From: Candidatus Nomurabacteria bacterium
GTDB taxonomy: Bacteria; Patescibacteriota; Saccharimonadia; Saccharimonadales; CAIOMD01
NCBI GenBank assembly: GCA_020631975.1
Contig: JACKGO010000008.1
Coordinates: 72,446 to 136,445, forward strand
Direction: 5' to 3'
DNA length: 64,000 nt
This document shows positions 7,206 through 19,633 of the stretch, in pieces. The position numbers were made by a program, and so were the translations under genes. Position 1 is the first letter of the stretch; the number at the start of each line of letters is the position of its first letter. The notes below the pieces were generated by a model that was given only the letters and a program-made list of their open reading frames with translations, did not search any database and was not told the origin of the DNA.

Positions 7206-7295
7206 GGAGAGGTGCAAGAGTGGTTGAATTGGCTTGTCTCGAAAACAAGTGAGCCAGCAATGGTTCCGAGGGTTCGAATCCCTCCCTCTCCGCCA
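7206..7295 (+). tRNA. tRNA-Ser (anticodon CGA), CCA encoded
   Basis: Hand-folded: acceptor GGAGAGG/CCTCTCC, anticodon arm CTTGT-CTCGAAA-ACAAG, long variable arm, T-arm GAGGG-TTCGAAT-CCCTC. Confidence 0.9.
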
Positions 7296-7353
7296 ATTTG
7301 TGAGCCCCGCTTTTATGCGGGGTTTTCAAATTGCTGTGAAAAGTGCATTCGAA
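7281..7353. repeat. tRNA-Ser 3' end plus downstream flank; an inverted homolog lies at 14986-15059
   Basis: The 26-nt block aaattgctgtgaaaagtgcattcgaa (7328-7353) is identical to the reverse complement of 14986-15011. The hairpin and the tRNA 3' end are also similar. Confidence 0.7.
7303..7327 (+). terminator. intrinsic terminator after tRNA-Ser(CGA)
   Basis: ccccgc (7305-7310) pairs with gcgggg (7317-7322), followed by tttt. Confidence 0.6.
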
Positions 7354-7540
7354 CCCGATAGGGTGAAAACTGCCAGTGGCAGTTTGCAAGGCCGGAAACC
7401 CTACGCACGAATGTGCCAGAGTTGAGGCGGGGCCGAAACCGATTGCCAATTGATTGGCAGTAGGATTGTGGCCGAATCCCCCTTTACCAACAGATAAGTG
7501 AAGCAATATAAAAAGCCCTAGACAAACTAGGGGTTTTTAC
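7350..7540 (+). other. structured intergenic segment with its own terminator; possible small RNA of unknown class
   Basis: Local hairpins (aaactgcc/ggcagttt, tgcca/tggca). Ends in the bidirectional terminator ccctag-acaaa-ctaggg plus ttttt (7515-7538). No credible ORF. Confidence 0.2.
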
Positions 7541-7541
7541 A

Positions 7542-7618
7542 TGGTACACCCGGCGCGATTCGAACGCACGACCTCCTGTACCGCAAACAGACGCTCTATC
7601 CAGCTGAGCTACGGGTGC
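7542..7618 (-). tRNA. tRNA-Arg (anticodon GCG), CCA encoded
   Basis: Hand-folded reverse complement: GCACCCG acceptor, D-arm GCTC-AGCTGGATA-GAGC, anticodon loop TTGCGGT, T-arm GTGCG-TTCGAAT-CGCGC. Confidence 0.9.
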
Positions 7619-7652
7619 TTATAAGCAATGGTTACTATACCAGATTAAACGG

Positions 7653-7892
7653 CTACTTACCAGGGTTATTTTGCTTTTTAGCAAGGATAATAATACCCAC
7701 AACTGGTCCAACAATAAATAACAATACTGCTACTGTGCCTGCCAACCAACTTACAATGTTTATAAGTGAAGCTATAACATTATCTTCTGCACTAAAGAAT
7801 AATCTAATAATTACTTGTAACATGGCCATGGCTACAAGTAACGTAGGCCCAGAAAAAATCCACAGTAACCCTTTGGCGGTGCTGCTCATCAA
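7653..7892 (-). CDS. small membrane protein (79 aa)
   Basis: Two hydrophobic helices. Start overlaps the stop of the upstream gene (7889-7892). Confidence 0.55.
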   Translation of the reverse strand: MMSSTAKGLLWIFSGPTLLVAMAMLQVIIRLFFSAEDNVIASLINIVSWLAGTVAVLLFIVGPVVGIIILAKKQNNPGK

Positions 7893-8476
7893 AAGCGCAG
7901 TCTACTACTTAGTTTGTCAGCAAAATCACGTCTTTTTTGGTCGTATGGTACAAATTTACCGAGCGCATCTACAACCAGATCAATCTGATCTGGGGAAACA
8001 TATACCGTAAGGGGCACACTTAATTTCTTTTGTAATAAAAGCTGTATATACGGTATGCCTTCTTCGTTAATAACAGAAAAACTCTTTATTGCATTAAACG
8101 AATATAATTTGTTGCCAATTTGTATGCCACTTGGTGTAATTTCGTACTGTAAAGTTCTTGGCTTAGCGGCTCCGTACACACCAAACAAGGCTGCCATAAC
8201 AAAGACAACAGCTACCGATAATAGTTGCCGTGTAAACACAAACACTACTGCAGCCAGTACAAGAGCGCCACCAACTAAAGTAAAGTACCATTTAGCGCTT
8301 TTATCGTGTTGTACAAATTCAGACGCACTCCAGGCTACAATTGAACCATTTTGAGCAGCGTCATACTGCTGGAAAGATTCTGGGGATGATTGGTCACCAT
8401 CTTCTACTAAATTGCCAGATGTGTAGTTCCATTGCTGAGCAGGGGGTTGTTGTTGCGACGGGTCATTAGGGTTCAT
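7889..8476 (-). CDS. membrane protein with Q/P-rich N-terminus, two TM helices and a C-terminal soluble domain
   Basis: Long ORF with hydrophobic pair WYFTLVGGALVLAAVVFVF / LLSVAVVFVMAALFGVYG. No catalytic motif recognised. Confidence 0.6.
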   Translation of the reverse strand: MNPNDPSQQQPPAQQWNYTSGNLVEDGDQSSPESFQQYDAAQNGSIVAWSASEFVQHDKSAKWYFTLVGGALVLAAVVFVFTRQLLSVAVVFVMAALFGVYGAAKPRTLQYEITPSGIQIGNKLYSFNAIKSFSVINEEGIPYIQLLLQKKLSVPLTVYVSPDQIDLVVDALGKFVPYDQKRRDFADKLSSRLRF

Positions 8477-8549
8477 CTAATGCTTATTTTACACGCTAAT
8501 GGCTATAATTGAATACATTTTGGCGTTCGAGCATACTTCACTTTGCCAT

Positions 8550-8576
8550 AAAATATACCCCAGACAAGCTGGGGCT
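8550..8576 (-). terminator. orphaned terminator, inferred to be the native terminator of tRNA-Ser(UGA) before element insertion
   Basis: ccccag (8558-8563) pairs with ctgggg (8569-8574), T-rich on the minus strand. Lies immediately outside the left att core at 8584. Confidence 0.5.
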
Positions 8577-8583
8577 CATTTTA

Positions 8584-8729
8584 TGGCGCAGTTTTACAAC
8601 CGAGCTAGAACCCATTTTGGCGCAAATGCCTGACGCACTGGCCGAAAACCCCAAAAAACTCCTCGCCTGATTTTCTGAAAGATTTCCCCCGCCGAATTTT
8701 GGAAATTGAGAGGAGTTTTTGGGGTTTTA
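8584..8729. repeat. arm A (146 bp), perfect inverted repeat of 9928-10073
   Basis: Base-by-base reverse-complement match read by eye. Contains an internal ~19-bp stem (aaaaccccaaaaaactcctc / gaggagtttttggggtttt). Confidence 0.9.
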
Positions 8730-8754
8730 GACGCTCTACTATGACAACCGGTCA

Positions 8755-8783
8755 TTGACATAAGAGCAATAATGTGCTAGTAT
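8755..8783 (+). promoter_or_regulatory. sigma70-like promoter for the Fic gene
   Basis: TTGACA (8755-8760), 17-nt spacer, TAGTAT (8778-8783), with TGc extended -10. About 50 nt upstream of the ATG. Confidence 0.5.
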
Positions 8784-8835
8784 CTTAAGCAGTCTAACTA
8801 TAAAATAAAAATACAAGAAAATCGAAAGCTAAACC

Positions 8836-9918
8836 ATGTCGAACGAGATAGTTTCCCATAAAGACAACCGCGCAGAAGATATTACAGAGTTTTTCAACTC
8901 CCAAGAGCAACTCAAAGACTCTACACAGCGTCGTGATTACTTTGAGCACCTAGATGAAAACGAGTTCCTTGATCTTGTCCAACAAACTGCGGGACTTGTA
9001 CGAACTGGTAAGGTAGAAAACCAGCATTTTGATGGCGAAACGGTCGGGTTAATGACGCATGAAGTGCCCGACCAGCGGGAAAAAGAGCAACTTTTGCGCG
9101 ATACATGGACAGTAGCAAAAGAGTTTTTGAGTGATGCCGAAATTCCCGATGAAGATGCACTGGATTATGCTGCACTTACGGTTGCTGGTGGCTTACTGTA
9201 TGCACACCCATTTATGGATGGCAACGGTCGCACTAGTCGAACACTCTCGTACATGATTGCTCGTGGTAACGGTGATAAGCAGGAGTTGCACGACATACTT
9301 GCCGAAACTGGCGGTGGCCGTAACTGGCAAGTCGCACCAGTGCCTCTAGTGACGAGCGGTCAGTCGGTGTTTGAGGGCAAGCAACCGAAATCGATTGAAT
9401 GGGAAGATACATTTGTTGGCGAGGCAGAAGATGCGCTCGGTGGTGCTATTGCCAACAGTAGATATAAAGACGCGATTATTAGAAAGTTTATCGAAAAATA
9501 CGGTGAGTTAGCCGGAGAGCAGATTAAAGGAAGTTCGTTACAGCATGAAGATGGAACTTCTACGCTAAATGGTGAAGAGTTTATTGCCAAACTTGTTAAC
9601 GATCCAGAGGCGGGCATGACAAATGCGGATGAATTGATGAAGTTACATCGTGAAGCCCGCGCCGATTATGTTCACCGGTTTCTTAAAGCAATGCAGCTGA
9701 AAGAAAAGACACAGCTTCGTAGAATCCGCCAAGGAGATTTTGAGATAACCGACCAAGATGATGAATTCCAGAGAGGGCGTAAGCAAACAATCATTAAAGA
9801 GTTTGGAAAGCGTTCCGTTAATGGATTGTTGACACCTGCCGAGCAGCAACTCGTACAGCACCGTTCGTACTCACGAATACGTCATGGGAAAGAACGGGAC
9901 GAAGATATCGCCGCTTAA
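8836..9918 (+). CDS. Fic (filamentation induced by cAMP) domain protein
   Basis: Canonical Fic motif HPFMDGNGRTSR (HxFx[DE]GNGRxxR), 360 aa. Confidence 0.9.
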   Translation: MSNEIVSHKDNRAEDITEFFNSQEQLKDSTQRRDYFEHLDENEFLDLVQQTAGLVRTGKVENQHFDGETVGLMTHEVPDQREKEQLLRDTWTVAKEFLSDAEIPDEDALDYAALTVAGGLLYAHPFMDGNGRTSRTLSYMIARGNGDKQELHDILAETGGGRNWQVAPVPLVTSGQSVFEGKQPKSIEWEDTFVGEAEDALGGAIANSRYKDAIIRKFIEKYGELAGEQIKGSSLQHEDGTSTLNGEEFIAKLVNDPEAGMTNADELMKLHREARADYVHRFLKAMQLKEKTQLRRIRQGDFEITDQDDEFQRGRKQTIIKEFGKRSVNGLLTPAEQQLVQHRSYSRIRHGKERDEDIAA

Positions 9919-9927
9919 CGGCGATGA

Positions 9928-10073
9928 TAAAACCCCAAAAACTCCTCTCAATTTCCAAAATTCGGCGGGGGAAATCTTTCAGAAAATCAGGCGAGGAGTT
10001 TTTTGGGGTTTTCGGCCAGTGCGTCAGGCATTTGCGCCAAAATGGGTTCTAGCTCGGTTGTAAAACTGCGCCA
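9928..10073. repeat. arm A' (146 bp), inverted partner of 8584-8729; also acts as a large hairpin after the Fic stop codon
   Basis: Perfect reverse complement of arm A. Shares the cgcca core (10069-10073) with arm B. Confidence 0.9.
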
Positions 10074-10203
10074 CAAGCAAACTTTTTTGGAAATTGCCGT
10101 CCGCATGGGCGGCTTTTTCTTTGGCTGCGCGGAGCGCCAGCCAGATGTTTTCAGGGGGGAAGTGGGAGCTGGGGCGCGGCTGGAGCCGCGCTTTTTTGGT
10201 TGT
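10069..10203. repeat. arm B (135 bp), perfect inverted repeat of 11757-11891
   Basis: Base-by-base reverse-complement match. Contains a terminator-like gcgcggct-gg-agccgcgc followed by tttttt. Confidence 0.9.
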
Positions 10204-10355
10204 CCGCCATAGGCGGATTTCTGGTAAAATAAGAGTGGACACAAGTTAATTTTCGGAAATTCCGTTTTTTGTAGGCTTTAATAGCCGTCTCGTACAATCT
10301 GGGATTTCCTAGCTTGTGTCCAGCGAGGCGGCTATTTAAGTTCTAGGGGGTAGCG

Positions 10356-12023
10356 ATGGCTGAAAAATATTTCATTTATGCTCGCAAGAGTACCGATGTC
10401 GAGGACAAACAAGTTTTGTCTATCGAGGCACAGATAGCGGAGTTGAAAAAGTACGCCAAAGATAACCAACTAACAGTAGTAGACACTGTTATCGAAAAGA
10501 AGTCCGCCAAAGTGCCGGGACGCCTCAAGTTTGGCGCAATGCTTACTCGAATTGAAGCTGGTGAAGCCAGTGGAGTTATCTCGTGGCACCCTGACCGATT
10601 GGCAAGAAATAGTATAGACGGCGGACAGATTGTCTATCTGCTCGACCAAACGCACCTGCAATCGCTCAAGTTTCCGACATTTTGGTTTGAAAATACCAGT
10701 CAGGGTAAGTTTATGCTGTCTATTGCGTTTGGTCAGAGCAAATACTACATCGACAACCTCGCGGAGAATACGAAGCGTGGTTTGCGCCAGAAAGTACGGC
10801 GGGGCGAGTTTCCGGGGCTTGCGCCTGTTGGGTATATCAACGACGTGCGCATACATACGATTATTACTGACAAACGCCGCGCCCCAATCATCGCGCAAGC
10901 CTTTGAGTTGTATGCTCTCGGCGGTAGCCGCCTGCAAGATATTGCCAAATTTCTGGCAGATAAGGGTGTGAAAACGAGGAGCGGCAAGCACCTCACAAAA
11001 GATATGGTGAAGAAAATACTGACCAATCCTATCTACTACGGACATTTTAAGTATGCTGGCGAGGTACATGAGGGCAAACATACGCCGATTATTAGCAAGA
11101 AGCTGTTTGACTATGTACAGGCGACGCTAGAACGACGCGGACACAAGCGCAAGGGCGCGAACGCGCCCCAAGCCTTGTGCGGCTTGTTGACTTGCGGCGG
11201 GTGCAATATGGCGATTACTGCCGAGAAAAAGATAAAATACCAGAAAAACGGCAATGTACATGAGTATATTTACTACCGTTGTTCAAGGAAACATAAAACG
11301 ATTGCTTGCAAAGAGCCGACCATAACCGAACCCGACCTTGTCGCACAGCTTGCCGACATCTTGCAGGACTACGCCCTGCCGAAGTCGTGGGCGGTAGAGC
11401 TAGAAACAATGCTCGCAGAAGACGAGAAGAAAGCAGAACAAAGTTCTGCGGTGTTTATCACTGACACACAAAACAAGATACAGAGCTTGCAGAGCAAGCT
11501 CCAGCGACTACTCGACAGCTACCTAGACCAAGATATTGACCAACATGCGTACCGTGCCAAGCAAGCCGAGTTGATGAGCCAAAAGAAGTCGCTGGAAGAA
11601 CAAACCAGCAAGCTGACGCTTGCCGCCAATAGTTGGGTTGAACCTATGCGACAGTGGCTCAAAACGGCGATTTCTCTCTGTGAAATCGCAAAATGTGCCG
11701 AGCCAGCGGCAATGAAACAGGCTTTTAGCGAAATTGACGGATTGAACCTGTTTTTAACAACCAAAAAAGCGCGGCTCCAGCCGCGCCCCAGCTCCCACTT
11801 CCCCCCTGAAAACATCTGGCTGGCGCTCCGCGCAGCCAAAGAAAAAGCCGCCCATGCGGACGGCAATTTCCAAAAAAGTTTGCTTGTGGCGGAGAGAGTG
11901 GGATTCGAACCCACGGTACCGTTGCCGGCACGCATGTTTTCAAGACATGTTCCTTCAACCACTCGGACATCTCTCCATACAGGTAGTAAGTATACCAAAT
12001 GTGATGTTGTTGCTAAAGCATAA
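10356..12023 (+). CDS. large serine recombinase (resolvase domain, recombinase domain, zinc ribbon, coiled coil)
   Basis: N-terminal YARKSTD...SIEAQ and HPDRLARN. Zinc ribbon CGLLTCGGC...YYRCSRK. The last ~90 aa are encoded by arm B' and then the antisense of tRNA-Ser. Confidence 0.9.
   Translation: MAEKYFIYARKSTDVEDKQVLSIEAQIAELKKYAKDNQLTVVDTVIEKKSAKVPGRLKFGAMLTRIEAGEASGVISWHPDRLARNSIDGGQIVYLLDQTHLQSLKFPTFWFENTSQGKFMLSIAFGQSKYYIDNLAENTKRGLRQKVRRGEFPGLAPVGYINDVRIHTIITDKRRAPIIAQAFELYALGGSRLQDIAKFLADKGVKTRSGKHLTKDMVKKILTNPIYYGHFKYAGEVHEGKHTPIISKKLFDYVQATLERRGHKRKGANAPQALCGLLTCGGCNMAITAEKKIKYQKNGNVHEYIYYRCSRKHKTIACKEPTITEPDLVAQLADILQDYALPKSWAVELETMLAEDEKKAEQSSAVFITDTQNKIQSLQSKLQRLLDSYLDQDIDQHAYRAKQAELMSQKKSLEEQTSKLTLAANSWVEPMRQWLKTAISLCEIAKCAEPAAMKQAFSEIDGLNLFLTTKKARLQPRPSSHFPPENIWLALRAAKEKAAHADGNFQKSLLVAERVGFEPTVPLPARMFSRHVPSTTRTSLHTGSKYTKCDVVAKA
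11757..11891. repeat. arm B' (135 bp), inverted partner of 10069-10203
   Basis: Perfect reverse complement of arm B. Its last 5 nt are the CGCCA 3' end of tRNA-Ser(UGA). Lies inside the recombinase ORF. Confidence 0.9.
11887..11976 (-). tRNA. tRNA-Ser (anticodon TGA), copy 1, CCA encoded
   Basis: Hand-folded: acceptor GGAGAGA/TCTCTCC perfect, anticodon loop CTTGAAA, T-arm GTGGG-TTCGAAT-CCCAC. Confidence 0.85.
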
Positions 12024-12111
12024 TATGTGTATTTACTGACGATAGTTGTGGGCATTAGAGTAAGGCATAGTAAGCTCAAGGTTAGTAGCTCAATAGAAGG
12101 TTGCGTTTTAG

Positions 12112-12963
12112 TTAGAGATTTAGATTAAGCATGTCTTCACATAAAACAATTACCGCTTTTTTGTTTACGGGTTCTTTTGTATAGCCAAGCTGAGTACCAA
12201 CTTCTTGTGACATCCTATCGAATATATCAACCATACTAAGTGTTGCTTGCCATATTTCTTTTTTTTCACTAGTTGCGCTAATACTATTTATCTCATTTGC
12301 AAAATCAATATCCATAAGCTTTTCTAAATTTCTGCCGTGAACGCCATAGTTAATGCTCCAGTTGTTACTAAGACCCACATACCATGAAAGCATTCTCTCG
12401 AATGATTCATATCGTATAGCGCTTAATAGCATATACCTAGCAAAGGCCGTTTCTCCACGACGCAAGCTTTTTGCTATATAGGGTAAATCCCAATAAAAGC
12501 CATCTACAGTTTCATAAAATTCCCTCTCAGTTGGTTTGGTAACTATGTATTTTTTTAAAGTAGGGTGTACTATTTTGGATTCTATATTATCTTTATCTAT
12601 AATTATCTTGTATCCGTTATTATAGTCTGTGCTATCAAAGTGCTGATTATCAATAATTTGAAAGTCAACCCTAGGAAAGTCTTTAAAAACAACCAGCCTG
12701 GTAAGACTACCCGGAGCAAAGCCAGCATTTCTTGGCATGAGTGGCCACTTTACTAATGTTTGTCCAAAATAGTCTAACCAGTCATCGCTGTTAAATAAAT
12801 GTAAATCTTTTACGATTAATTCTACGTCATAATCTGATAGCTTATCTGGTTTTGAGCTTTTACTGACTCGAGAGCTAGTCAATATCATTGCTCTTACATT
12901 ATCGTTTTGAGTGCCCCAGCGTTCTAACTTTGAAAGTACATCTTGTTCATTGGTTTCAAACAT
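12112..12963 (-). CDS. ant(6): aminoglycoside 6-nucleotidyltransferase, ANT(6)/AadK-type (streptomycin adenylyltransferase family)
   Basis: 283 aa, collinear from memory with B. subtilis AadK. Examples: SDYDVELIVKD...DDWLDYFG versus QDYDISYFVTD...DQWLEIFG, and PTEREF...YIAKSLRRGE versus PTAREF...YVVKGLARNE. Confidence 0.8.
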   Translation of the reverse strand: MFETNEQDVLSKLERWGTQNDNVRAMILTSSRVSKSSKPDKLSDYDVELIVKDLHLFNSDDWLDYFGQTLVKWPLMPRNAGFAPGSLTRLVVFKDFPRVDFQIIDNQHFDSTDYNNGYKIIIDKDNIESKIVHPTLKKYIVTKPTEREFYETVDGFYWDLPYIAKSLRRGETAFARYMLLSAIRYESFERMLSWYVGLSNNWSINYGVHGRNLEKLMDIDFANEINSISATSEKKEIWQATLSMVDIFDRMSQEVGTQLGYTKEPVNKKAVIVLCEDMLNLNL

Positions 12964-13148
12964 GATTCTAGTATAATTTATAACTTACAATTATAGATAT
13001 TTTTGTTTTTAGAATAAGAAAGAGAAAGAGGCATGAACGCACGATGCTAGACTGGCTTTTCTATTCCAACATCTAACTAAAGTTTTGTTCAAATCAGATA
13101 GCTTTGACAGAATTCTAAACACTCTGCTCGGGTTTTAACCTAATTATT

Positions 13149-13206
13149 ACAGCAATTTAAAAACCCCGCAAATACGGGGATCTTAAATTGGCGGAGGAGG
13201 AGGGAT
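13149..13206. repeat. 58-bp direct repeat (tRNA-Ser 3' end plus hairpin flank), partner at 15002-15059
   Basis: acagcaatttaaaaaccccgcaaat...attggcggaggaggagggat. About 5 mismatches between the copies by eye. Confidence 0.8.
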
Positions 13207-13278
13207 TCGAACCCTCGGTACCGTTGCCGGCACGACGGTTTTCAAGACCGTTTCCTTCAACCACTCGGACACCTCTCC
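13189..13278 (-). tRNA. tRNA-Ser (anticodon TGA), copy 2, chimeric acceptor stem
   Basis: 5' strand GGAGAGG but 3' strand CTCCTCC, identical to the 3' end of tRNA-Ser(GCT). This gives an A5:C68 mismatch and a G6:U67 wobble. Confidence 0.75.
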
Positions 13279-13332
13279 GTACAACAAGATAGTATAGCAA
13301 AAAACTACACAAACACTAAAAAGCGTAAAATC

Positions 13333-14262
13333 TCACCCCAAATGCGACTTTTCCGTAACTTTCGCTAGTTCCAGTGTAGCAGTCTCCGGATTATCTTTAT
13401 AATATTGCTTGAATTGAGCTGGGGTCATCATGTCAGGTAACCCCATATGCCATCTACGGTTAATGTAGTGTTTGGTAAATCTGTTGGCTCGTTCCTGTAG
13501 TTCTGCGATGTCTTTTTGTTGGTATTCGCCCCTTGGGAAGCATTCGCTTCTGAGAGATTTGTTGAAGTTTTCAATATGGCTTTGTTCGTTCTTCTTGTAC
13601 GGACGGCTATAACGATGCTCACTGACAGCCTCAACAGCCTCTCGGAAGGTTGTTTGGAACTCGGAGCCGTTATCCGACTGGTGCAATACTGTACGCCCGT
13701 AGAAGGCGTTGTGGATGGCAAAAGCCCCGGCTCCGGTGTTCATCTCTAGGTTAGTACCAATTACTACACTTGGTTCCTTCGTGAATATGTCTATGGCTGT
13801 ATATGCATAGACACCGCCACCCAGGTCTACTGTGTCGTGTTCGATTACTTCTCTTGGGGCAGAAGCTGCCACGAGAGCTTTATGTTTCTTGTAGCGCCGT
13901 ACGCCAACAGCCGCCTTGGTGAAACGTCTGTGAAGATAACGGTAGATAGTGGATAAAGCCAGGCTAATGCCATGGTTTTCTTTGAGTTCTTTACGTATCT
14001 TAGCGCCACACCAGCCAAACTCATTTCTAATGTCTACTATCTTTTGGATGGTGGTTTCTGGTATTTGAGCTTTGGGGCGACGGTGCTTGGCGGTGGTCTT
14101 GCGCTTCAGAAACAACCGGATGCCGATCTGTTTGATCTTTCTTAGCCAACGGTAGACAGTAGCCCTATCGCGGGATACTACCTGAGCTATTTGGTTGATG
14201 GTAGATTCAGCTTGGTACATATTCCATGCTGTTTCGTAGATTGTTAGTGTACGCTTAGTCAT
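13333..14262 (-). mobile_element. IS481-family-like DDE transposase gene (309 aa); IS ends not identified
   Basis: N-terminal HTH (ATVYRWLRK). rve-type core with D (HDTVDLG), D (HQSDNGSEF) and E (SHIENFNKSLRSE). Fills the ~1.05-kb gap next to the tRNA 5' end. Confidence 0.75.
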
Positions 14263-14333
14263 AGCGACACTCCTTTCTTGATGTTTAGTTTGATACCTAA
14301 ACGAAAGTATACGGAGTGTTGCTACCTTTTAGC

Positions 14334-14804
14334 TTACTTTTGTCGCATTTTTAGTGGGAATTTTCCGAAAGGGGCAGTAGCTGGATTGCTGCATTCATAG
14401 ACAGCTTGTATGGCCGGCGTTGAAGGGTTAGCGTATGCAACAAAAAAATCTAATGTACAGTACGTATTGGCAACCTGCTTATAAGCATAGGCATCTGGAT
14501 ACCAATCTTTTCCAGATAGCACATCTTTAAACCATTGCTTAACTTGTAGCTCTTGGTCTTCGCGCTGTGTCCAACCCTGAAACTGTAACTGTGAACTAAG
14601 CTTGTCTGCAACATCTACAGCAGTGTCTTTTTTTACTTGGGTATCAAATGGCATATACGCCTTGTTGGTAACGACACAAGAATAATTACTTGCTTCACTA
14701 CATACAGTAGTTGATTCTATGTTTTCAAAGCCTAGTAGGGCGAGTGGCTTTCCAAGGGCGTTATATTCGCGTGTAAATGTTTTTTGGGTATTATGTTTTA
14801 CCAT
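14334..14804 (-). CDS. hypothetical protein (156 aa)
   Basis: Uninterrupted ORF with no recognisable motif. Confidence 0.5.
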   Translation of the reverse strand: MVKHNTQKTFTREYNALGKPLALLGFENIESTTVCSEASNYSCVVTNKAYMPFDTQVKKDTAVDVADKLSSQLQFQGWTQREDQELQVKQWFKDVLSGKDWYPDAYAYKQVANTYCTLDFFVAYANPSTPAIQAVYECSNPATAPFGKFPLKMRQK

Positions 14805-14822
14805 AAAGTTATTAATAGAGCT

Positions 14823-14912
14823 TCAGATATTAAGTAACATAATGCTCCCTATAAGCAAAAAAATTACACCACTAATAGCGAGCCACGTATGTTTGTTTTT
14901 TGACCCTTTCAT
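14823..14912 (-). CDS. possible 29-aa single-TM peptide (MKGSKNKHTWLAISGVIFLLIGSIMLLNI)
   Basis: Short ORF just upstream of 14334..14804 on the same strand. Below the ORF-track size cutoff. Confidence 0.3.
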   Translation of the reverse strand: MKGSKNKHTWLAISGVIFLLIGSIMLLNI

Positions 14913-15001
14913 ATCAGTATTATATATGTTTTCTTACCACAATAATGTAAAACCCCACACATATTAAGATTCTTATGTAGTCGGTTTCGAATGCACTTTT
15001 C

Positions 15002-15059
15002 ACAGCAATTTAAAAACCCCGCAAATGCAGGGATTTTATATTGGCGGAGGAGGAGGGAT
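15002..15059. repeat. displaced tRNA-Ser 3' fragment (15042-15059) plus flank; direct partner of 13149-13206
   Basis: tggcggaggaggagggat matches the 3' 18 nt of the tRNA-Ser genes at 13189 and 15215, then diverges (gctttcag). Confidence 0.8.
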
Positions 15060-15214
15060 GCTTTCAGTGCGCAGCAATCTTACTCTAAACGAGTTTCTGC
15101 GTGAGATTGCTTGGCGCCCGAAGCCCTCGCTATCGCCAGCTAAAGCTGTCGAGCTCGGGTTCAAATCCCTGCTACAGTAAATCAAGACACCCCCATAAAG
15201 GGGGTGCTTTGATT
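15060..15214. other. 155-bp unassigned spacer between complete tRNA-Ser(GCT) and its displaced 3' fragment
   Basis: Contains stem gcaatct/agattgc, a T-arm-like gggttcaaatccc, and a bidirectional hairpin caccccc-ataaa-gggggtg. No credible ORF. Confidence 0.3.
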
Positions 15215-15307
15215 TGGCGGAGGAGGAGGGATTCGAACCCTCGCACCAGGTTGCCCCGATCTAACGATTTAGCAAACCGTCCCCTTCAGCCACTTGGGTA
15301 CTCCTCC
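15215..15307 (-). tRNA. tRNA-Ser (anticodon GCT), CCA encoded
   Basis: Hand-folded: acceptor GGAGGAG/CTCCTCC, anticodon arm ACGGT-TTGCTAA-ATCGT, long variable arm, T-arm GAGGG-TTCGAAT-CCCTC. Confidence 0.9.
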
Positions 15308-16746: not shown

Positions 16747-17166
16747 CTAGGATGCTGTGTTGGCAACGTTGCCAAGTACAAACTTCACAATAACCTGCGC
16801 AAGCGCCACGATGATAAGACCTACTATTGCGTACAATATGGTGTTCTTTGCAGAAGTAACGCTACCGGCATCACCACCGCTGGTAATGTAGCGGAAACCG
16901 CCATAGATAATCATGATGACAGAAACAACACCAACAACCCAAGAAAAGATATTAATGATGAGGTTTACCGTATCATTAACACCTTCTGATGCTTCGTCAT
17001 TGATATTTGTACAGTCGCCAGCAGTGTTAGGTGCTTGCAAGTTTGCGCCACCACACAGGCCACTTTGAATATCACTTTGAGCAATTGCTATAGCAGGAAC
17101 GGTCAATGGAGCGAGCATACCTACAGCTGTGAATGCCGCTATTATTAATGTTTTTAGTCTGTTCAT
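16747..17166 (-). CDS. VirB2/TrbC-like T4SS pilin paralog 1 (139 aa)
   Basis: Signal peptide, variable Cys-containing region, conserved core IINIFSWVVGVVSVIMIIYGGFRYITSGGDAGSVTSAKNTILYAIVGLII (TM-loop-TM). Confidence 0.75.
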   Translation of the reverse strand: MNRLKTLIIAAFTAVGMLAPLTVPAIAIAQSDIQSGLCGGANLQAPNTAGDCTNINDEASEGVNDTVNLIINIFSWVVGVVSVIMIIYGGFRYITSGGDAGSVTSAKNTILYAIVGLIIVALAQVIVKFVLGNVANTAS

Positions 17167-17250
17167 GTAAATTCCTTATTTAACGTTAGCTTATGATACT
17201 TTTTTACCATATATTAATGTTTTTGTAAATATATAATCGTTCGTTCACTA

Positions 17251-17457
17251 TTTAGGTTACATTACCAAGCACAAAAAGCACAAGTACTTGCGCGAGTGCG
17301 GCGATTACCAAACCAACCAGTGCATAGACAATGGTATTTTTGGCGCTTGTTACTTTACCAGCATCACCCCCGCTAGTGATATACCGAAAACCACCAAATA
17401 TGACCATAATGACCGATACCACACCAACGATCCATGAAAAGATGTTGATGATGTCTT
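17251..17457. repeat. ~207-bp direct repeat (3' halves of pilin genes 2 and 3), partner at 17645-17851
   Basis: Near-identical by eye, with about 4 substitutions. Offset 394 bp. Confidence 0.85.
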
Positions 17458-17623
17458 CTACCAGAGTGTTAACTTTTGCTGGTGCGCTGCCCGCACATTG
17501 GTCACCGGTACATGTAGCTTCGACACCTTTTTTTATCTGTGCATAGCTCGTAGTAGTTGTAAGTACAGGGCCTACGAAAGCAAATGTTGCGAGTGCTGCT
17601 AGGCCTATTAAAAACGCTTTCAT
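17252..17623 (-). CDS. VirB2/TrbC-like T4SS pilin paralog 2 (123 aa)
   Basis: Same architecture. C-terminal 68 aa identical to paralog 3. Confidence 0.75.
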   Translation of the reverse strand: MKAFLIGLAALATFAFVGPVLTTTTSYAQIKKGVEATCTGDQCAGSAPAKVNTLVEDIINIFSWIVGVVSVIMVIFGGFRYITSGGDAGKVTSAKNTIVYALVGLVIAALAQVLVLFVLGNVT

Positions 17624-17644
17624 TTTTTTACTCCTTTATTTATC

Positions 17645-17851
17645 TTTAGGTTACATTACCAAGCACAAAAAGCACAAGTACTTGCGCGAGTGCCGCGATT
17701 ACCAAACCAACTAGTGCATAGACAATGGTATTTTTGGCACTGGTTACTTTACCAGCATCACCCCCGCTAGTGATATACCGAAAACCACCAAATATGACCA
17801 TAATGACCGATACCACACCAACGATCCATGAAAAGATGTTGATGATGTCTT
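17645..17851. repeat. ~207-bp direct repeat, partner of 17251-17457
   Basis: See partner entry. Confidence 0.85.
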
Positions 17852-18044
17852 GCACGAGGTTGTTTGCTTTTGCCTTAACACCTATTTTATTGCCCTCGCT
17901 GTCGTACTGCTGGCAGTTACCATCCGGACACGTAGCATTGATGCCATCTGTTACTGGGCTAGCGTATATGGGTAAACTCAATGCTGGCAGGGCAGCGGCA
18001 CTTAGTCCAAACACTGCTACGATTACTAAAAAGAGTTTTTTCAT
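17646..18044 (-). CDS. VirB2/TrbC-like T4SS pilin paralog 3 (132 aa)
   Basis: Same architecture. Variable region carries CPDGNC. Confidence 0.75.
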   Translation of the reverse strand: MKKLFLVIVAVFGLSAAALPALSLPIYASPVTDGINATCPDGNCQQYDSEGNKIGVKAKANNLVQDIINIFSWIVGVVSVIMVIFGGFRYITSGGDAGKVTSAKNTIVYALVGLVIAALAQVLVLFVLGNVT

Positions 18045-18057
18045 TTTATATCCTTTA

Positions 18058-18459
18058 TTAGTTTAATAACTTTGCTATTGCAAATAATATCAACCGATTT
18101 GCTAATACAACAACCACTAACCCAACAAGTGAGTACAATATAGTCTGCCGCCCAGTTGCTGCCTTTTGCGGTTCACCAGCGCTGGTAATGTACTTAAAAC
18201 CACCAAATATAACCATAAAAACTGCAAGCGCACCTGCTACAAAAGATAATATATTAATTATTCTCTTAATAAGAATTAGTATTGCGTTATCGCCCGGGTC
18301 GGCGTCACTACCTTTATCGTAGCCTTTACATAGTGAACTGGTTGGGTTGTTTTTGCACACTTCGGTTAAATCTTCTGTTGCGCTCGCAGCCATCGCTAAA
18401 GGACTTATGGTCAAAAAAAGTAGTGCTGTGGCGAATAAAGATGTCAAAAACATTTTCAT
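18058..18459 (-). CDS. VirB2/TrbC-like T4SS pilin paralog 4 (133 aa)
   Basis: Signal peptide, CKNNPTSSLC, core INILSFVAGALAVFMVIFGGFKYITSAGEPQKAATGRQTILYSLVGLVV. Confidence 0.7.
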   Translation of the reverse strand: MKMFLTSLFATALLFLTISPLAMAASATEDLTEVCKNNPTSSLCKGYDKGSDADPGDNAILILIKRIINILSFVAGALAVFMVIFGGFKYITSAGEPQKAATGRQTILYSLVGLVVVVLANRLILFAIAKLLN

Positions 18460-18468
18460 ATGTATGTG

Positions 18469-18747
18469 CTACGTCACCCTATTAAATATAAACAGAACAA
18501 TGACTTGGGCAAAAAATATTACAACCAACCCCGCTACGGCATATATAATCGCACGGCGAGCTTGGGCAACCTTTTCTGAATTACCCTGCGAAATAATCAG
18601 TTGTATACCAGAATAGACAACCATAATGACGGCAACTGCTCCAAAAATAGCGAGAACGTAATTTAAAATCGTGCCAAAACTATTTGTGTTTGTTTTTGGT
18701 AAATAATCAGAACTAATTATTGCTGAAAATGTGTATAAAATATTCAT
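18469..18747 (-). CDS. VirB2/TrbC-like T4SS pilin paralog 5 (92 aa, short N-terminus)
   Basis: Core LNYVLAIFGAVAVIMVVYSGIQLIISQGNSEKVAQARRAIIYAVAGLVV. No obvious long variable region. Confidence 0.65.
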   Translation of the reverse strand: MNILYTFSAIISSDYLPKTNTNSFGTILNYVLAIFGAVAVIMVVYSGIQLIISQGNSEKVAQARRAIIYAVAGLVVIFFAQVIVLFIFNRVT

Positions 18748-18749
18748 AT

Positions 18750-19259
18750 TTAGGCGAGTCCTCCGGCAATAAAGCCAACTATTTGCGACGCGATAACTGC
18801 AATTACCATACCTACCAAGGCATTAAACAGCGTTGTTCTGGCAGCGGCAATTTTTTGCGGTTCACCATCGCTCGTAAGTAATTTAAAACCGCCCCAAATA
18901 ATCATCACTACAGCAATAACGCCTGCTACATATAGAAGGATATCAAATATCCCCATAAGTATTAGAATAATGACTGTTCCACCTAGGCCATCTGTTTTAA
19001 TTTCACATTGCCCATTTACTTTTTGCCCCGGCAAGTACTGATACCAGGTTGGAAGAGGCAGACCTCCGCTACCTGGCCGGCATTTATTACCTTCTGCCTG
19101 TATGTTTGCTTCTGTTCCATCTGCTTGACGGGGGTTTTCTGGATTATCTGATTGCGCAACAACATGCACCGTAGACGGTACTATACCTAGCACAGCAATA
19201 CCCATACTTGGTACGAGTAATAGTGCTAGGCTTGTGAGAACTTTGGCAACGAGCTGCAT
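18750..19259 (-). CDS. VirB2/TrbC-like T4SS pilin paralog 6 (169 aa from Met at 19259)
   Basis: Start chosen at MQLVAKV (signal-like), overlapping the upstream stop (TAATG). Core FDILLYVAGVIAVVMIIWGGFKLLTSDGEPQKIAAARTTLFNALVGMVI. Confidence 0.7.
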   Translation of the reverse strand: MQLVAKVLTSLALLLVPSMGIAVLGIVPSTVHVVAQSDNPENPRQADGTEANIQAEGNKCRPGSGGLPLPTWYQYLPGQKVNGQCEIKTDGLGGTVIILILMGIFDILLYVAGVIAVVMIIWGGFKLLTSDGEPQKIAAARTTLFNALVGMVIAVIASQIVGFIAGGLA

Positions 19260-19633
19260 TAAAACACGCCCCCCGGTATTAACCACTGTATAAAGGCGTA
19301 CAAAAAGAAGTAGGCCACTAAACCAAATACAACGTTCCATATTTTTTCTTTAGCCGCTTGTACGTTTTGTGCGTTGTCTCTTGCTGTCATGTACTGTATG
19401 CCTGCCCACGCAATCATGACAGAACCACCAGCTAATATTGTTACAGAAAGCACATTAATAAAAAATTCTATCCATTTAATTATTGGGTTATCTTTAATGT
19501 CAGATGCAGTAGTTTGACCATTAGTTGGTGAAGGCTGTTTTAAGCCCTGCGCATAGGCAGCTTGTGTTGCAGGCATGGTAGTACCGCATAAACTTGCCGC
19601 TGCAATTGCTAAAATAAATAATGTTTTTTTCAT
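19259..19633 (-). CDS. VirB2/TrbC-like T4SS pilin paralog 7 (124 aa)
   Basis: Signal peptide, core FINVLSVTILAGGSVMIAWAGIQYMTARDNAQNVQAAKEKIWNVVFGLV. Confidence 0.65.
   Translation of the reverse strand: MKKTLFILAIAAASLCGTTMPATQAAYAQGLKQPSPTNGQTTASDIKDNPIIKWIEFFINVLSVTILAGGSVMIAWAGIQYMTARDNAQNVQAAKEKIWNVVFGLVAYFFLYAFIQWLIPGGVF

Follow-up and report, generated by a model that had tools for sequence, protein, structure and literature searches.

We analyzed a 64,000-nt stretch of DNA (below, the window) that spans positions 72,446-136,445, forward strand, of contig JACKGO010000008.1 (assembly GCA_020631975.1, Candidatus Nomurabacteria bacterium). The analysis concerns the segment between comF and a gene for a membrane protein, where three tRNA-Ser genes and a displaced tRNA fragment are interspersed with several mobile or species-specific genes. 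tRNA genes were called with ARAGORN and the Rfam tRNA model (gathering score 29 bits). Protein families were assigned with Pfam and NCBIfam, structured RNAs with Rfam and terminators with a terminator scan. Comparison contigs and loci carry labels used in the present analysis (L001, L108 etc.). In the order of the minus strand, the main features are as follows.

15215-15307, minus strand: intact tRNA-Ser(GCT), the first gene after comF (ARAGORN; Rfam 55.5 bits), 100% identical in contigs of close strains
15042-15059, minus strand: exact 18-nt copy of the 3' end of the GCT tRNA (from the A of the T-loop to CCA)
14981-15041, minus strand: hairpin T2 (terminator match 15032-15017), followed by the opening ~27 nt of a type-1 unit (GCATTCGAAACCGA)
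14334-14804, minus strand: hypothetical ORF restricted to this species, without a family assignment in Pfam or NCBIfam
13324-14367, minus strand: IS481-like insertion sequence (IS) with ~26-nt imperfect terminal inverted repeats and a 4-bp target duplication, CTTT
13333-14262, minus strand: IS481-like transposase (weak matches to Pfam rve, HTH and LZ_Tnp_IS481)
13189-13278, minus strand: tRNA-Ser(UGA) copy 2, mosaic (ARAGORN; Rfam 52.5 bits)
13122-13188, minus strand: hairpin T3 (terminator match 13179-13164) and downstream flank of copy 2
12112-12963, minus strand: ANT(6)-like nucleotidyltransferase gene (Pfam Adenyl_transf PF04439, E 1.6e-58, residues 5-269)
11887-11976, minus strand: tRNA-Ser(UGA) copy 1, native type, attachment site of the recombinase element (ARAGORN; Rfam 59.3 bits)
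8584-11886: large-serine-recombinase element, inserted at the CCA end of copy 1

The original prediction had interpreted this arrangement as the outcome of repeated site-specific integrations into tRNA-Ser 3' ends, and its descriptive claims are borne out. ARAGORN places the three tRNA-Ser genes on the minus strand at exactly the predicted positions. The spacer between the GCT gene and the fragment (15060-15214) is indeed 155 nt long. The 18-mer ATCCCTCCTCCTCCGCCA occurs exactly, and in direct orientation, at 15215-15232, 15042-15059 and 13189-13206, with no match in any of the 100 shuffles used to set the chance level (zero copies expected); the displaced 3' fragment is thus real, and partial-tRNA direct repeats bound the inserted segments of the locus. 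The flanks that follow copy 2 and the fragment, proposed to be homologous, are 93% identical over the 58 nt originally named and 84% identical over 79 nt when 13128-13206 is compared with 14981-15059. According to Pfam, the neighboring genes also are what they had been taken for: an ANT(6)-family protein, a transposase with rve and HTH domains, an ORF without any family, and a protein with Resolvase, Recombinase and zinc-ribbon domains.

A scan of species genomes with the comF protein yielded no relative. A pattern built from the body of tRNA-Ser(UGA) was used instead and retrieved 32 relative loci, 30 of them from Saccharibacteria or Saccharimonadales/Saccharimonadia metagenome-assembled genomes and two filed under broader taxon names. 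Their flanks are the same as those of the window, with pilin paralogues, HSP20 and comF on one side and the 195-aa membrane protein and tRNA-Arg on the other. Each of the 32 loci has a single tRNA-Ser(UGA) gene and none has two; in 21, a tRNA-Ser(GCT) gene is no more than 250 nt away from the UGA gene, in either order. The acceptor stem is fully complementary in every complete UGA tRNA of the relatives (GGAGAGG/CCTCTCC, GGAAGGG/CCCTTCC or GGAGAGA/TCTCTCC). Consequently, neither the tandem UGA arrangement nor the acceptor mismatch of copy 2 described below, which if shared by relatives would have spoken against the original prediction, is present in any of these loci. The distance from comF to the membrane-protein gene is 396 nt in L049, with no mobile genes in this interval, versus 6.9 kb in the window (15371 to 8476). 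The ancestral interval is therefore comF, tRNA-Ser(GCT), tRNA-Ser(UGA) and the membrane-protein gene, ~0.4 kb in all, and the synteny comparison with related genomes identifies the tRNA-Ser pair as a real hotspot of foreign DNA insertion.

Taken together, these data make it probable that we are dealing with a hypervariable insertion hotspot at a conserved tRNA-Ser(GCT)/tRNA-Ser(UGA) pair, which has grown in layers from ~0.4 kb to 6.9 kb. With few exceptions, the joints of the layers fall between the T-loop and CCA, in or at the 3' part of a tRNA-Ser gene. The layers differ in kind: plain transposition for the IS, insertion at a CCA end for the serine recombinase element, and, as the best explanation of the mosaic tRNA, a crossover between isoacceptor genes.

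The mosaic gene is copy 2. As had been noticed originally, its 5' acceptor strand reads GGAGAGG and its 3' strand CTCCTCC, which results in an A5:C68 mismatch and a G6:U67 wobble pair. The Rfam model flags one non-standard acceptor pair, and still accepts copy 2 as a tRNA well above the gathering score. Copy 2 is identical to the tRNA-Ser(UGA) of L025, L029 and L030 except for positions 81-82, where TC replaces CT. This replacement turns CCTCTCC into the GCT-type CTCCTCC at a cost of ~7 bits in the tRNA model (52.5 versus 59.8); the 3' acceptor strand of copy 2 is thereby identified as both derived and GCT-type, in line with the earlier claim. Among the 32 species loci, L022 is the one whose comF and HSP20 are closest to those of the window. 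Copy 1 differs from the tRNA of L022 only in three compensatory anticodon-stem pairs, and the sister species L108 has the L022 sequence for this tRNA. Since copy 1 matches the L022/L108 type and copy 2 that of other species, copy 1 represents the resident type and copy 2 a type seen elsewhere, and the view that the two copies are not a recent duplication holds.

The origin of the GCT-type tail is a different matter. It had been attributed to an attachment-site copy carried by an integrating element, and the comparison with L108 points the other way. This locus was found through an ANT(6) homologue 83% identical to that of the window and has the same pilin/HSP20/comF context. Its order is tRNA-Ser(GCT), hairpin, 88-nt module (described below), GAATCCCTCCTCCTCCGCCA, a flank co-linear with window positions 13188-12964, ANT(6), a native-type UGA gene and a serine recombinase. 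In other words, the ortholog of window segment 12964-13188 in the sister species lies directly behind a displaced GCT 3' fragment; CTCCTCCGCCA, the terminator and the region upstream of ANT(6) are all resident there. Because this block is resident behind a GCT 3' end, the UGA body of copy 2 would be the incoming part. Read this way, the sequences indicate that a foreign UGA body has been joined to a GCT-type 3' sequence within the T-arm that Ser tRNAs have in common; the 19-nt T-arm CGAGGGTTCGAATCCCTCC is identical in the three Ser tRNAs of the locus.

The simplest course of events that we can propose is the following. DNA of a related strain, bearing the GCT gene, a 173-nt cassette, the 3' fragment with hairpin T2, the hypothetical gene and a UGA gene, would have been taken up. 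The left crossover would lie in or before the GCT gene, and the right one between the donor UGA T-arm and the recipient GCT T-arm, within the identical 19 nt. Such uptake would explain why there is a second UGA gene, why its tail is of GCT type and why the locus has both T2 and T3 (T2 is 93% identical to T3). The second UGA gene does have the species-restricted hypothetical gene upstream. Mismatched copy 2 could persist because native copy 1 supplies the same anticodon.

An alternative history would make copy 2 a tandem duplicate of the resident UGA gene with two adjacent acceptor substitutions, the similar terminators reflecting shared ancestry of tRNA-Ser flanks. Indeed, copy 2 is just two neighboring bases away from a perfectly paired tRNA, the promoters of the two copies are alike and the flank of tRNA-Ser(CGA), located elsewhere in the window, is homologous as well. 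We nevertheless find this history very unlikely. The two copies differ at 12 positions in the acceptor, anticodon and T stems, compensated stem pairs included, and copy 2 matches other species instead; no relative has a second UGA gene; and the changed bases are exactly those of the GCT sequence, followed by a flank 93% identical to the one behind the GCT fragment.

Another alternative is closest to the original prediction: successive elements with integrases of the classical tRNA-targeting kind, each replacing the 3' end of the tRNA gene with its own attP and pushing the old end downstream, so that copy 2 would be a host tRNA with an element-borne tail. Three exact, directly oriented copies of an 18-nt 3' end, homologous terminators after two of them and a site-specific recombinase next door are what such islands would leave behind, and arrays of this sort have been described for other streamlined genomes (bioRxiv 10.1101/2020.12.28.424599). 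However, there is no tyrosine integrase between 7 and 16 kb. The one site-specific recombinase of the locus is the large serine recombinase, whose joints lie at the CCA end, with a shared core of 5 nt, and not in the T-loop. Furthermore, the GCT-type 3' end, its flank and ANT(6) are resident in the sister species with the UGA body being of foreign type, and the 'island' between the first two repeats is merely 155 nt long. We thus regard a pile of classical islands as unlikely. Of the originally proposed mechanism, the hotspot at tRNA 3' ends stands, and repeated site-specific integration does not extend to all layers, as the IS is a plain transposition, the recombinase uses the CCA end and the tyrosine integrase is missing from 7-16 kb. 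No integrase that would explain the T-loop joints was found; these joints may be the work of a site-specific enzyme or of homologous or microhomology recombination.

The 18-nt fragment after the GCT gene is not the far end of a gene-carrying island. It forms the end of a mini-cassette of 173 nt, and similar cassettes are found at many tRNA genes. In addition to the fragment, the mini-cassette has the following parts (R1 denotes the covariance model of the 88-nt module; the last three entries lie outside the mini-cassette, at 7206-7618).

15179-15214, minus strand: hairpin H1, terminator-like and adjoining the CCA of the GCT tRNA (terminator match 15207-15187); it marks the left end of the mini-cassette, and the 18-nt copy marks the right end
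15060-15178, minus strand: structured spacer, no Rfam family, not matched by model R1
15153-15178: antisense T-arm-like stretch in the spacer
15124-15130: copy of the 7 nt that precede the T-loop of the GCT tRNA (GCGAGGG)
15060-15123: 64-nt insert at the place of the would-be T-loop
7206-7448, plus strand: tRNA-Ser(CGA), hairpin and diverged type-1 module (7363-7448), belonging to the family of the mini-cassette but lying on the other strand (as seen from inverted matches)
7206-7295, plus strand: tRNA-Ser(CGA) itself (ARAGORN)
7542-7618, minus strand: tRNA-Arg(GCG) (ARAGORN)

The mini-cassette shares its architecture (tRNA, hairpin, structured insert, exact copy of the tRNA 3' end) with the recurring units. 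An exact 20-nt 3' copy lies 144-161 nt after tRNA-Ser(UGA) in L019 and after tRNA-Arg(GCG) in L025 and L047, and the same plan is seen at tRNA-Ser(GCT) in L036 and L108. The sequence beyond the fragment belongs to this family too: 14981-15041 has a 95% inverted match to the tRNA-Ser(CGA) flank at 7316-7358, and 14981-15007 holds the beginning of a type-A unit, which is cut short at the hypothetical gene. An opposite-strand gene (tRNA, tmRNA or another RNA with a terminal T-arm) was considered as the source of the antisense T-arm-like GAATTCGAACCC stretches and rejected, as neither ARAGORN nor Rfam finds anything there.

In most such units the insert is a conserved module of 88 nt, GTGAGAA...TTCGCAAGG...AAACTTGTTT...GGGGTCGC...GTGACC. 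Examples are L001:11779-11867, window positions 7363-7448 (plus strand), L025, L035, L036 and L108:7669-7756. Scanning metagenome contigs with the module core revealed 49 more loci (L050-L098), all on contigs without taxonomic assignment. The units come in two arrangements. In arrangement A an intact tRNA is followed by 68-85 nt, the module and the exact last 20 nt of the same tRNA (Ser, Glu, Leu, Val, His, Arg and Tyr). In arrangement B the 5' part of a tRNA, up to the D-, anticodon- or T-loop, is followed by the module, then by 24-75 nt holding the decayed remainder of the tRNA and a -10 box, and finally by an intact copy of the same tRNA (Gly, Pro, Leu, Val, Ser, Lys, Trp and Glu). The metagenome contigs contributed ~11 further tRNA-first and ~19 fragment-first units. 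A dozen tRNA identities are represented, and in every case one side of the module continues into an exact fragment of the tRNA in question, with an intact copy of it nearby that has a promoter or terminator of its own. Its predicted fold consists of three hairpins, with compensatory double changes at 20 of the 33 predicted pairs among 36 distinct sequences. Rfam has no match for it, even at E = 10. Within the window, model R1 detects a single diverged copy, the one beside tRNA-Ser(CGA) (34.9 bits, E 2.6e-5), and none inside 11887-15307.

Several identities of the module were considered and rejected. A group I intron or its relic lacks an Rfam match, and with 2-4 loop nucleotides replaced the exons cannot rejoin. 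The same replacement, together with the intact tRNA copy that is always alongside, speaks against any spliceable intron, and the missing loop nucleotides against one of the archaeal type. A group II-like reading (5' GUGAG, 3' AC, terminal hairpins) fails on inspection of the sequence, the module being far too small and having no domain-5 signature. A guide RNA, with a scaffold and a 20-nt match as in transposon-associated nucleases, seems less likely, since no such nuclease gene is nearby. A phage origin was discarded because viral contigs contain no copies of the module.

The small fragment-bounded units are, then, a recurring class that is absent from Rfam and from the literature found by full-text search, which returned no description of tRNA-fragment-linked modules in Saccharibacteria. 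Our tentative proposal, to which we give somewhat less than an even chance, is that the 88-nt module, and by architecture also the 64-nt insert, is a previously undescribed element, mobile or an RNA gene, that lives only inside partial tRNA duplicates. A selfish nature, with survival confined to such duplicates, is conceivable, and so is a role as a functional small RNA. If the proposal is true, the module element would be a main driver of tRNA-anchored mosaics at this locus. In the layered history of the hotspot, the mini-cassettes would move or be exchanged through recombination between the repeated tRNA parts. Alternatively, the tRNA-fragment units, the 155-nt spacer with its fragment included, are not mobile relics at all but functional small RNAs of the host or processing signals of tRNA operons, which the hotspot just reshuffles. 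The compensatory changes that keep the three helices are in agreement with this alternative, as are a pseudo-anticodon arm conserved after the module in six tRNA-Gly loci, the placement of hairpin and -10 box that leaves the intact tRNA a promoter and a terminator, and the lack of copies in viral contigs. Yet the units occur at many tRNA identities with a matching fragment every time, they are present, absent or swapped between near-identical strains, and the interrupted tRNA copies are partly decayed. On balance, a host function is a possibility that we consider rather doubtful.

Strain contigs were obtained by exact-protein look-up; they come from many samples and two assembly pipelines and are 98.2-100% identical to the window. 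Among these close strains there is presence/absence polymorphism of the IS481-like element, a second IS, an alternative cassette and a unit of 189 nt. The alternative cassette, in L010, has another hairpin and begins directly after the CCA of the GCT tRNA. The 189-nt unit (L001:11714-11902 versus window 13213-13278) lies upstream of copy 2. It consists of a truncated copy of the first 66 nt of copy 2 plus 123 nt, and is a type-B unit. It is carried by all 10 strain contigs that cover the copy 2 junction and is absent from the window, which would represent the state without the unit. The window could accordingly hold a real deletion or empty-site allele, or else an assembly collapse across the 66-nt repeat.

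The whole mosaic might also be suspected of being an artefact, the repeated tRNA ends having led the metagenome assembler to join unrelated pieces. The window does lack the 189 nt of all other contigs, and many contigs break at the repeats. Against this, identical junctions recur in contigs from many samples and from both pipelines: GCT/spacer/fragment, the IS ends, copy 2-ANT(6)-copy 1 and the recombinase arms. Such recurrence in many samples excludes a simple assembly chimera, and we see next to no chance that the locus as a whole is artefactual.

The layer at the CCA end of copy 1 is of another type. Its components are listed below.

10356-12023, plus strand: recombinase ORF (Pfam Resolvase E 2e-21, Recombinase E 9.4e-20, Zn_ribbon_recom E 3.4e-8)
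10066-10203 and 11757-11894: inverted repeats around the recombinase gene (138 nt, 99% complementary)
about 10058-10085: internal inverted attP-like junction
8836-9918, plus strand: Fic-family gene
8581-8729 and 9928-10076: inverted repeats around the Fic gene (149 nt, 99% complementary)
8549-8583, minus strand: native terminator hairpin beyond the element (terminator match 8575-8557)

On the tRNA strand the order is copy 1 ending in ...CTCCGCCA, arm X, the recombinase gene (antisense), X inverted and TGGCGCAG, followed by arm Y, the Fic gene (antisense), Y inverted, CTGCGCCA, the native terminator and the membrane-protein gene. The junctions are CTCCGCCA/CAAGC and CTGCGCCA/TAAAA, with CTGCGCCA/CAAGC as the internal one. 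They share only CGCCA and no long direct repeat, as expected for a serine recombinase. The middle junction represents a complete attP-like site in inverted orientation, for which an attempt at a single-event model yielded no solution, and the excised element would be joined as ...GGTTGTAAAACTGCGCCA/CAAGCAAAC.... The sister strain L109 (3527-3720) has a hairpin behind its tRNA-Ser(UGA) and then a spacer of ~150 nt with the end ...CTCTGCGCCA, and the last 8 nt of this spacer, CTGCGCCA, are the motif of the far junction and of the internal site in the window. Judging by this match, the motif may descend from a decayed tRNA 3' fragment.

Both segments of the element are found in both orientations across natural metagenome contigs: the recombinase segment is flipped in L001, L006, L008, L011 and L017, and the Fic segment in L103 and L104. 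The flipping segment of the Fic gene includes a promoter-like site of this gene (8755-8783), and on our reading of the sequence the same is true of the recombinase gene and its segment. Since these sites flip along with their genes, the inversions do not look like an on/off switch. No inversion connecting or disconnecting a promoter and a gene was observed among these contigs; only the C-terminus of the recombinase changes. In the window the recombinase frame passes arm X and then crosses tRNA-Ser(UGA) antisense, taking its last 43 residues from the tRNA. The protein is 555 aa long there, versus 526 aa with a different 14-residue tail when flipped. The recombinase C-terminus may be rewritten both by integration, with a tail from the antisense tRNA, and by self-inversion. 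The inversions themselves may be by-products of the long perfect repeats.

Related enzymes use similar places elsewhere. Homologues of the recombinase lie antisense beside the CCA end of tRNA-Ser(UGA) in L040, L034 and L108, beside a displaced 3' fragment in L019 and overlapping tRNA-Arg(GCG) in L039; those in L040 and L039 also read into the antisense tRNA. Full-text literature search returned no description of serine recombinases at tRNA-Ser in Saccharibacteria.

The IS481-like element had been listed within the integration hotspot, and its target duplication, terminal repeats and absence from most sister strains mark it as a plain insertion sequence. The site is empty in L001, L002, L004, L007, L008, L011, L012 and L015 and occupied in L006. 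The element is a later insertion by ordinary transposition, not targeted to tRNA. Its transposase scores 104.6 bits against NCBIfam IS481, below the cutoff of 224 bits. The hypothetical ORF encodes 146 aa without the IS. An in-frame TGA splits the gene in the window (14805-14905); the codon is CCC in L003, L006 and L008, and strains without the TGA have a form of 181-192 aa. Outside the species no homologues of this gene were found, the sole homologue being the same species' 192-aa form. L009 carries the second IS, with a 373-aa transposase, at ~14820 inside the hypothetical gene, and in L015 the sequence upstream of ~14820 is different.

The ANT(6)-like protein stays far below the NCBIfam cutoffs (AadS 172 versus 450 bits, ANT_6 134 versus 420 bits), so that by its sequence it is a distant family member rather than a demonstrated resistance gene. 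The GC content of the gene is 33-36%, lower than that of the surroundings. The 83% identical homologue occupies the same place in L108 and L109, and ANT(6) must therefore be older than the copy 2 segment.

Two observations concern the vicinity of the locus. The segment with the membrane-protein gene and tRNA-Arg (window 7206-8476) sits between oppositely oriented tRNA-Ser genes, and the sister species (L108:14852-15882, L109:4427-5132), like several among the 32 relatives, have it inverted relative to the window. Inversions between tRNA-Ser genes thus seem to have happened repeatedly. On the comF side, 16747-19340 (minus strand) is an array of small paralogous genes (repeat families D1 and D2, 63-95% identical) annotated as T4SS_pilin in matching contigs. 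The array adjoins TrbL/PrgI/TraC/TraG-like genes in an arrangement conserved in relatives.

A number of points weigh against the layered history proposed above. The GCT-type tail of copy 2 is marked by only two adjacent bases. Judged from the tRNA alone, mutation could have produced it instead of recombination, and the case for a crossover leans on the co-linear flank. No donor genome with the hypothetical gene beside an intact UGA gene of the copy 2 type was found, because homologues of this gene are confined to the species. Assembly collapse, and not a real allele, could be the reason why the window lacks the 189 nt. A single event fails to explain L016, in which the module stands directly upstream of copy 2 without the truncated tRNA copy. 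Model R1 does not recognize the 64-nt insert, which is placed in the class of the 88-nt module by architecture only. Finally, no empty site for the recombinase element was found in strains or relatives: all strain contigs carry the element, and in more distant species, where the terminator directly follows the tRNA, the sequences are too diverged to show the exact joint.

Even with these points on the other side, a layered hotspot remains the reading that we favor as probable, and it bears on how tRNA genes evolve in small genomes. Saccharibacteria have tiny genomes with one copy per tRNA, so that any event at a tRNA gene must preserve its function. The locus shows function being kept: after each layer there is still an intact tRNA that has a promoter or terminator of its own, and the sole damaged tRNA gene, the mosaic one, is backed up by the native copy. 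On the favored reading it would also offer a dated, strain-resolved case of two isoacceptor genes recombining in a shared T-arm, a route to hybrid tRNAs and inter-tRNA rearrangements. Should the 88-nt covarying element, for which Rfam has no family, be mobile or a functional RNA, it would add a new player to the evolution of tRNA genes in these bacteria.

That tRNA genes serve as landing sites for foreign DNA is textbook knowledge. In streptococci, integrative elements and their integrase-less derivatives accrete at tRNA genes. The tycheposon islands of Prochlorococcus are genomic islands formed by repeated integration beside tRNA genes (bioRxiv 10.1101/2020.12.28.424599). The locus described here differs from both: most of its layers have no integrase, the units bounded by tRNA repeats are only ~170-190 nt long, and one joint fuses two different tRNA-Ser isoacceptors.

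Large serine recombinases include the phage integrases of the Bxb1/phiC31 type, the Ccr proteins of SCCmec and XisF, and form hybrid junctions that share few bases. The recombinase element resembles theirs in having the same three domains, hybrid junctions with CGCCA alone in common and a target reused by related enzymes in other species. Unlike the known enzymes, this recombinase scores far below every NCBIfam equivalog cutoff and targets the CCA end of a tRNA. Its frame crosses into the antisense tRNA, the internal attP-like site is inverted, and two pairs of ~140-bp inverted repeats flip the recombinase and Fic genes. The IS481-like element agrees with its family in the rve DDE transposase with an N-terminal HTH, the terminal inverted repeats, the short target duplication and the presence/absence among strains. 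It differs from typical members in being distant (104.6 versus 224 bits) and takes no part in tRNA targeting.

The one close paper that full-text search turned up concerns the self-splicing group I introns that tRNA genes of Patescibacteria carry at position 35/36 and whose removal restores a working tRNA (PMC13011429). Like these introns, the 88-nt module is additional structured sequence inside tRNA genes of the same phylum that is missed by standard annotation. In contrast to them, it is found in D-, anticodon- or T-loops, and a separate intact copy of the tRNA adjoins it. Islands anchored at tRNA genes are thus already known as a kind, and the module family is the part that could prove new.

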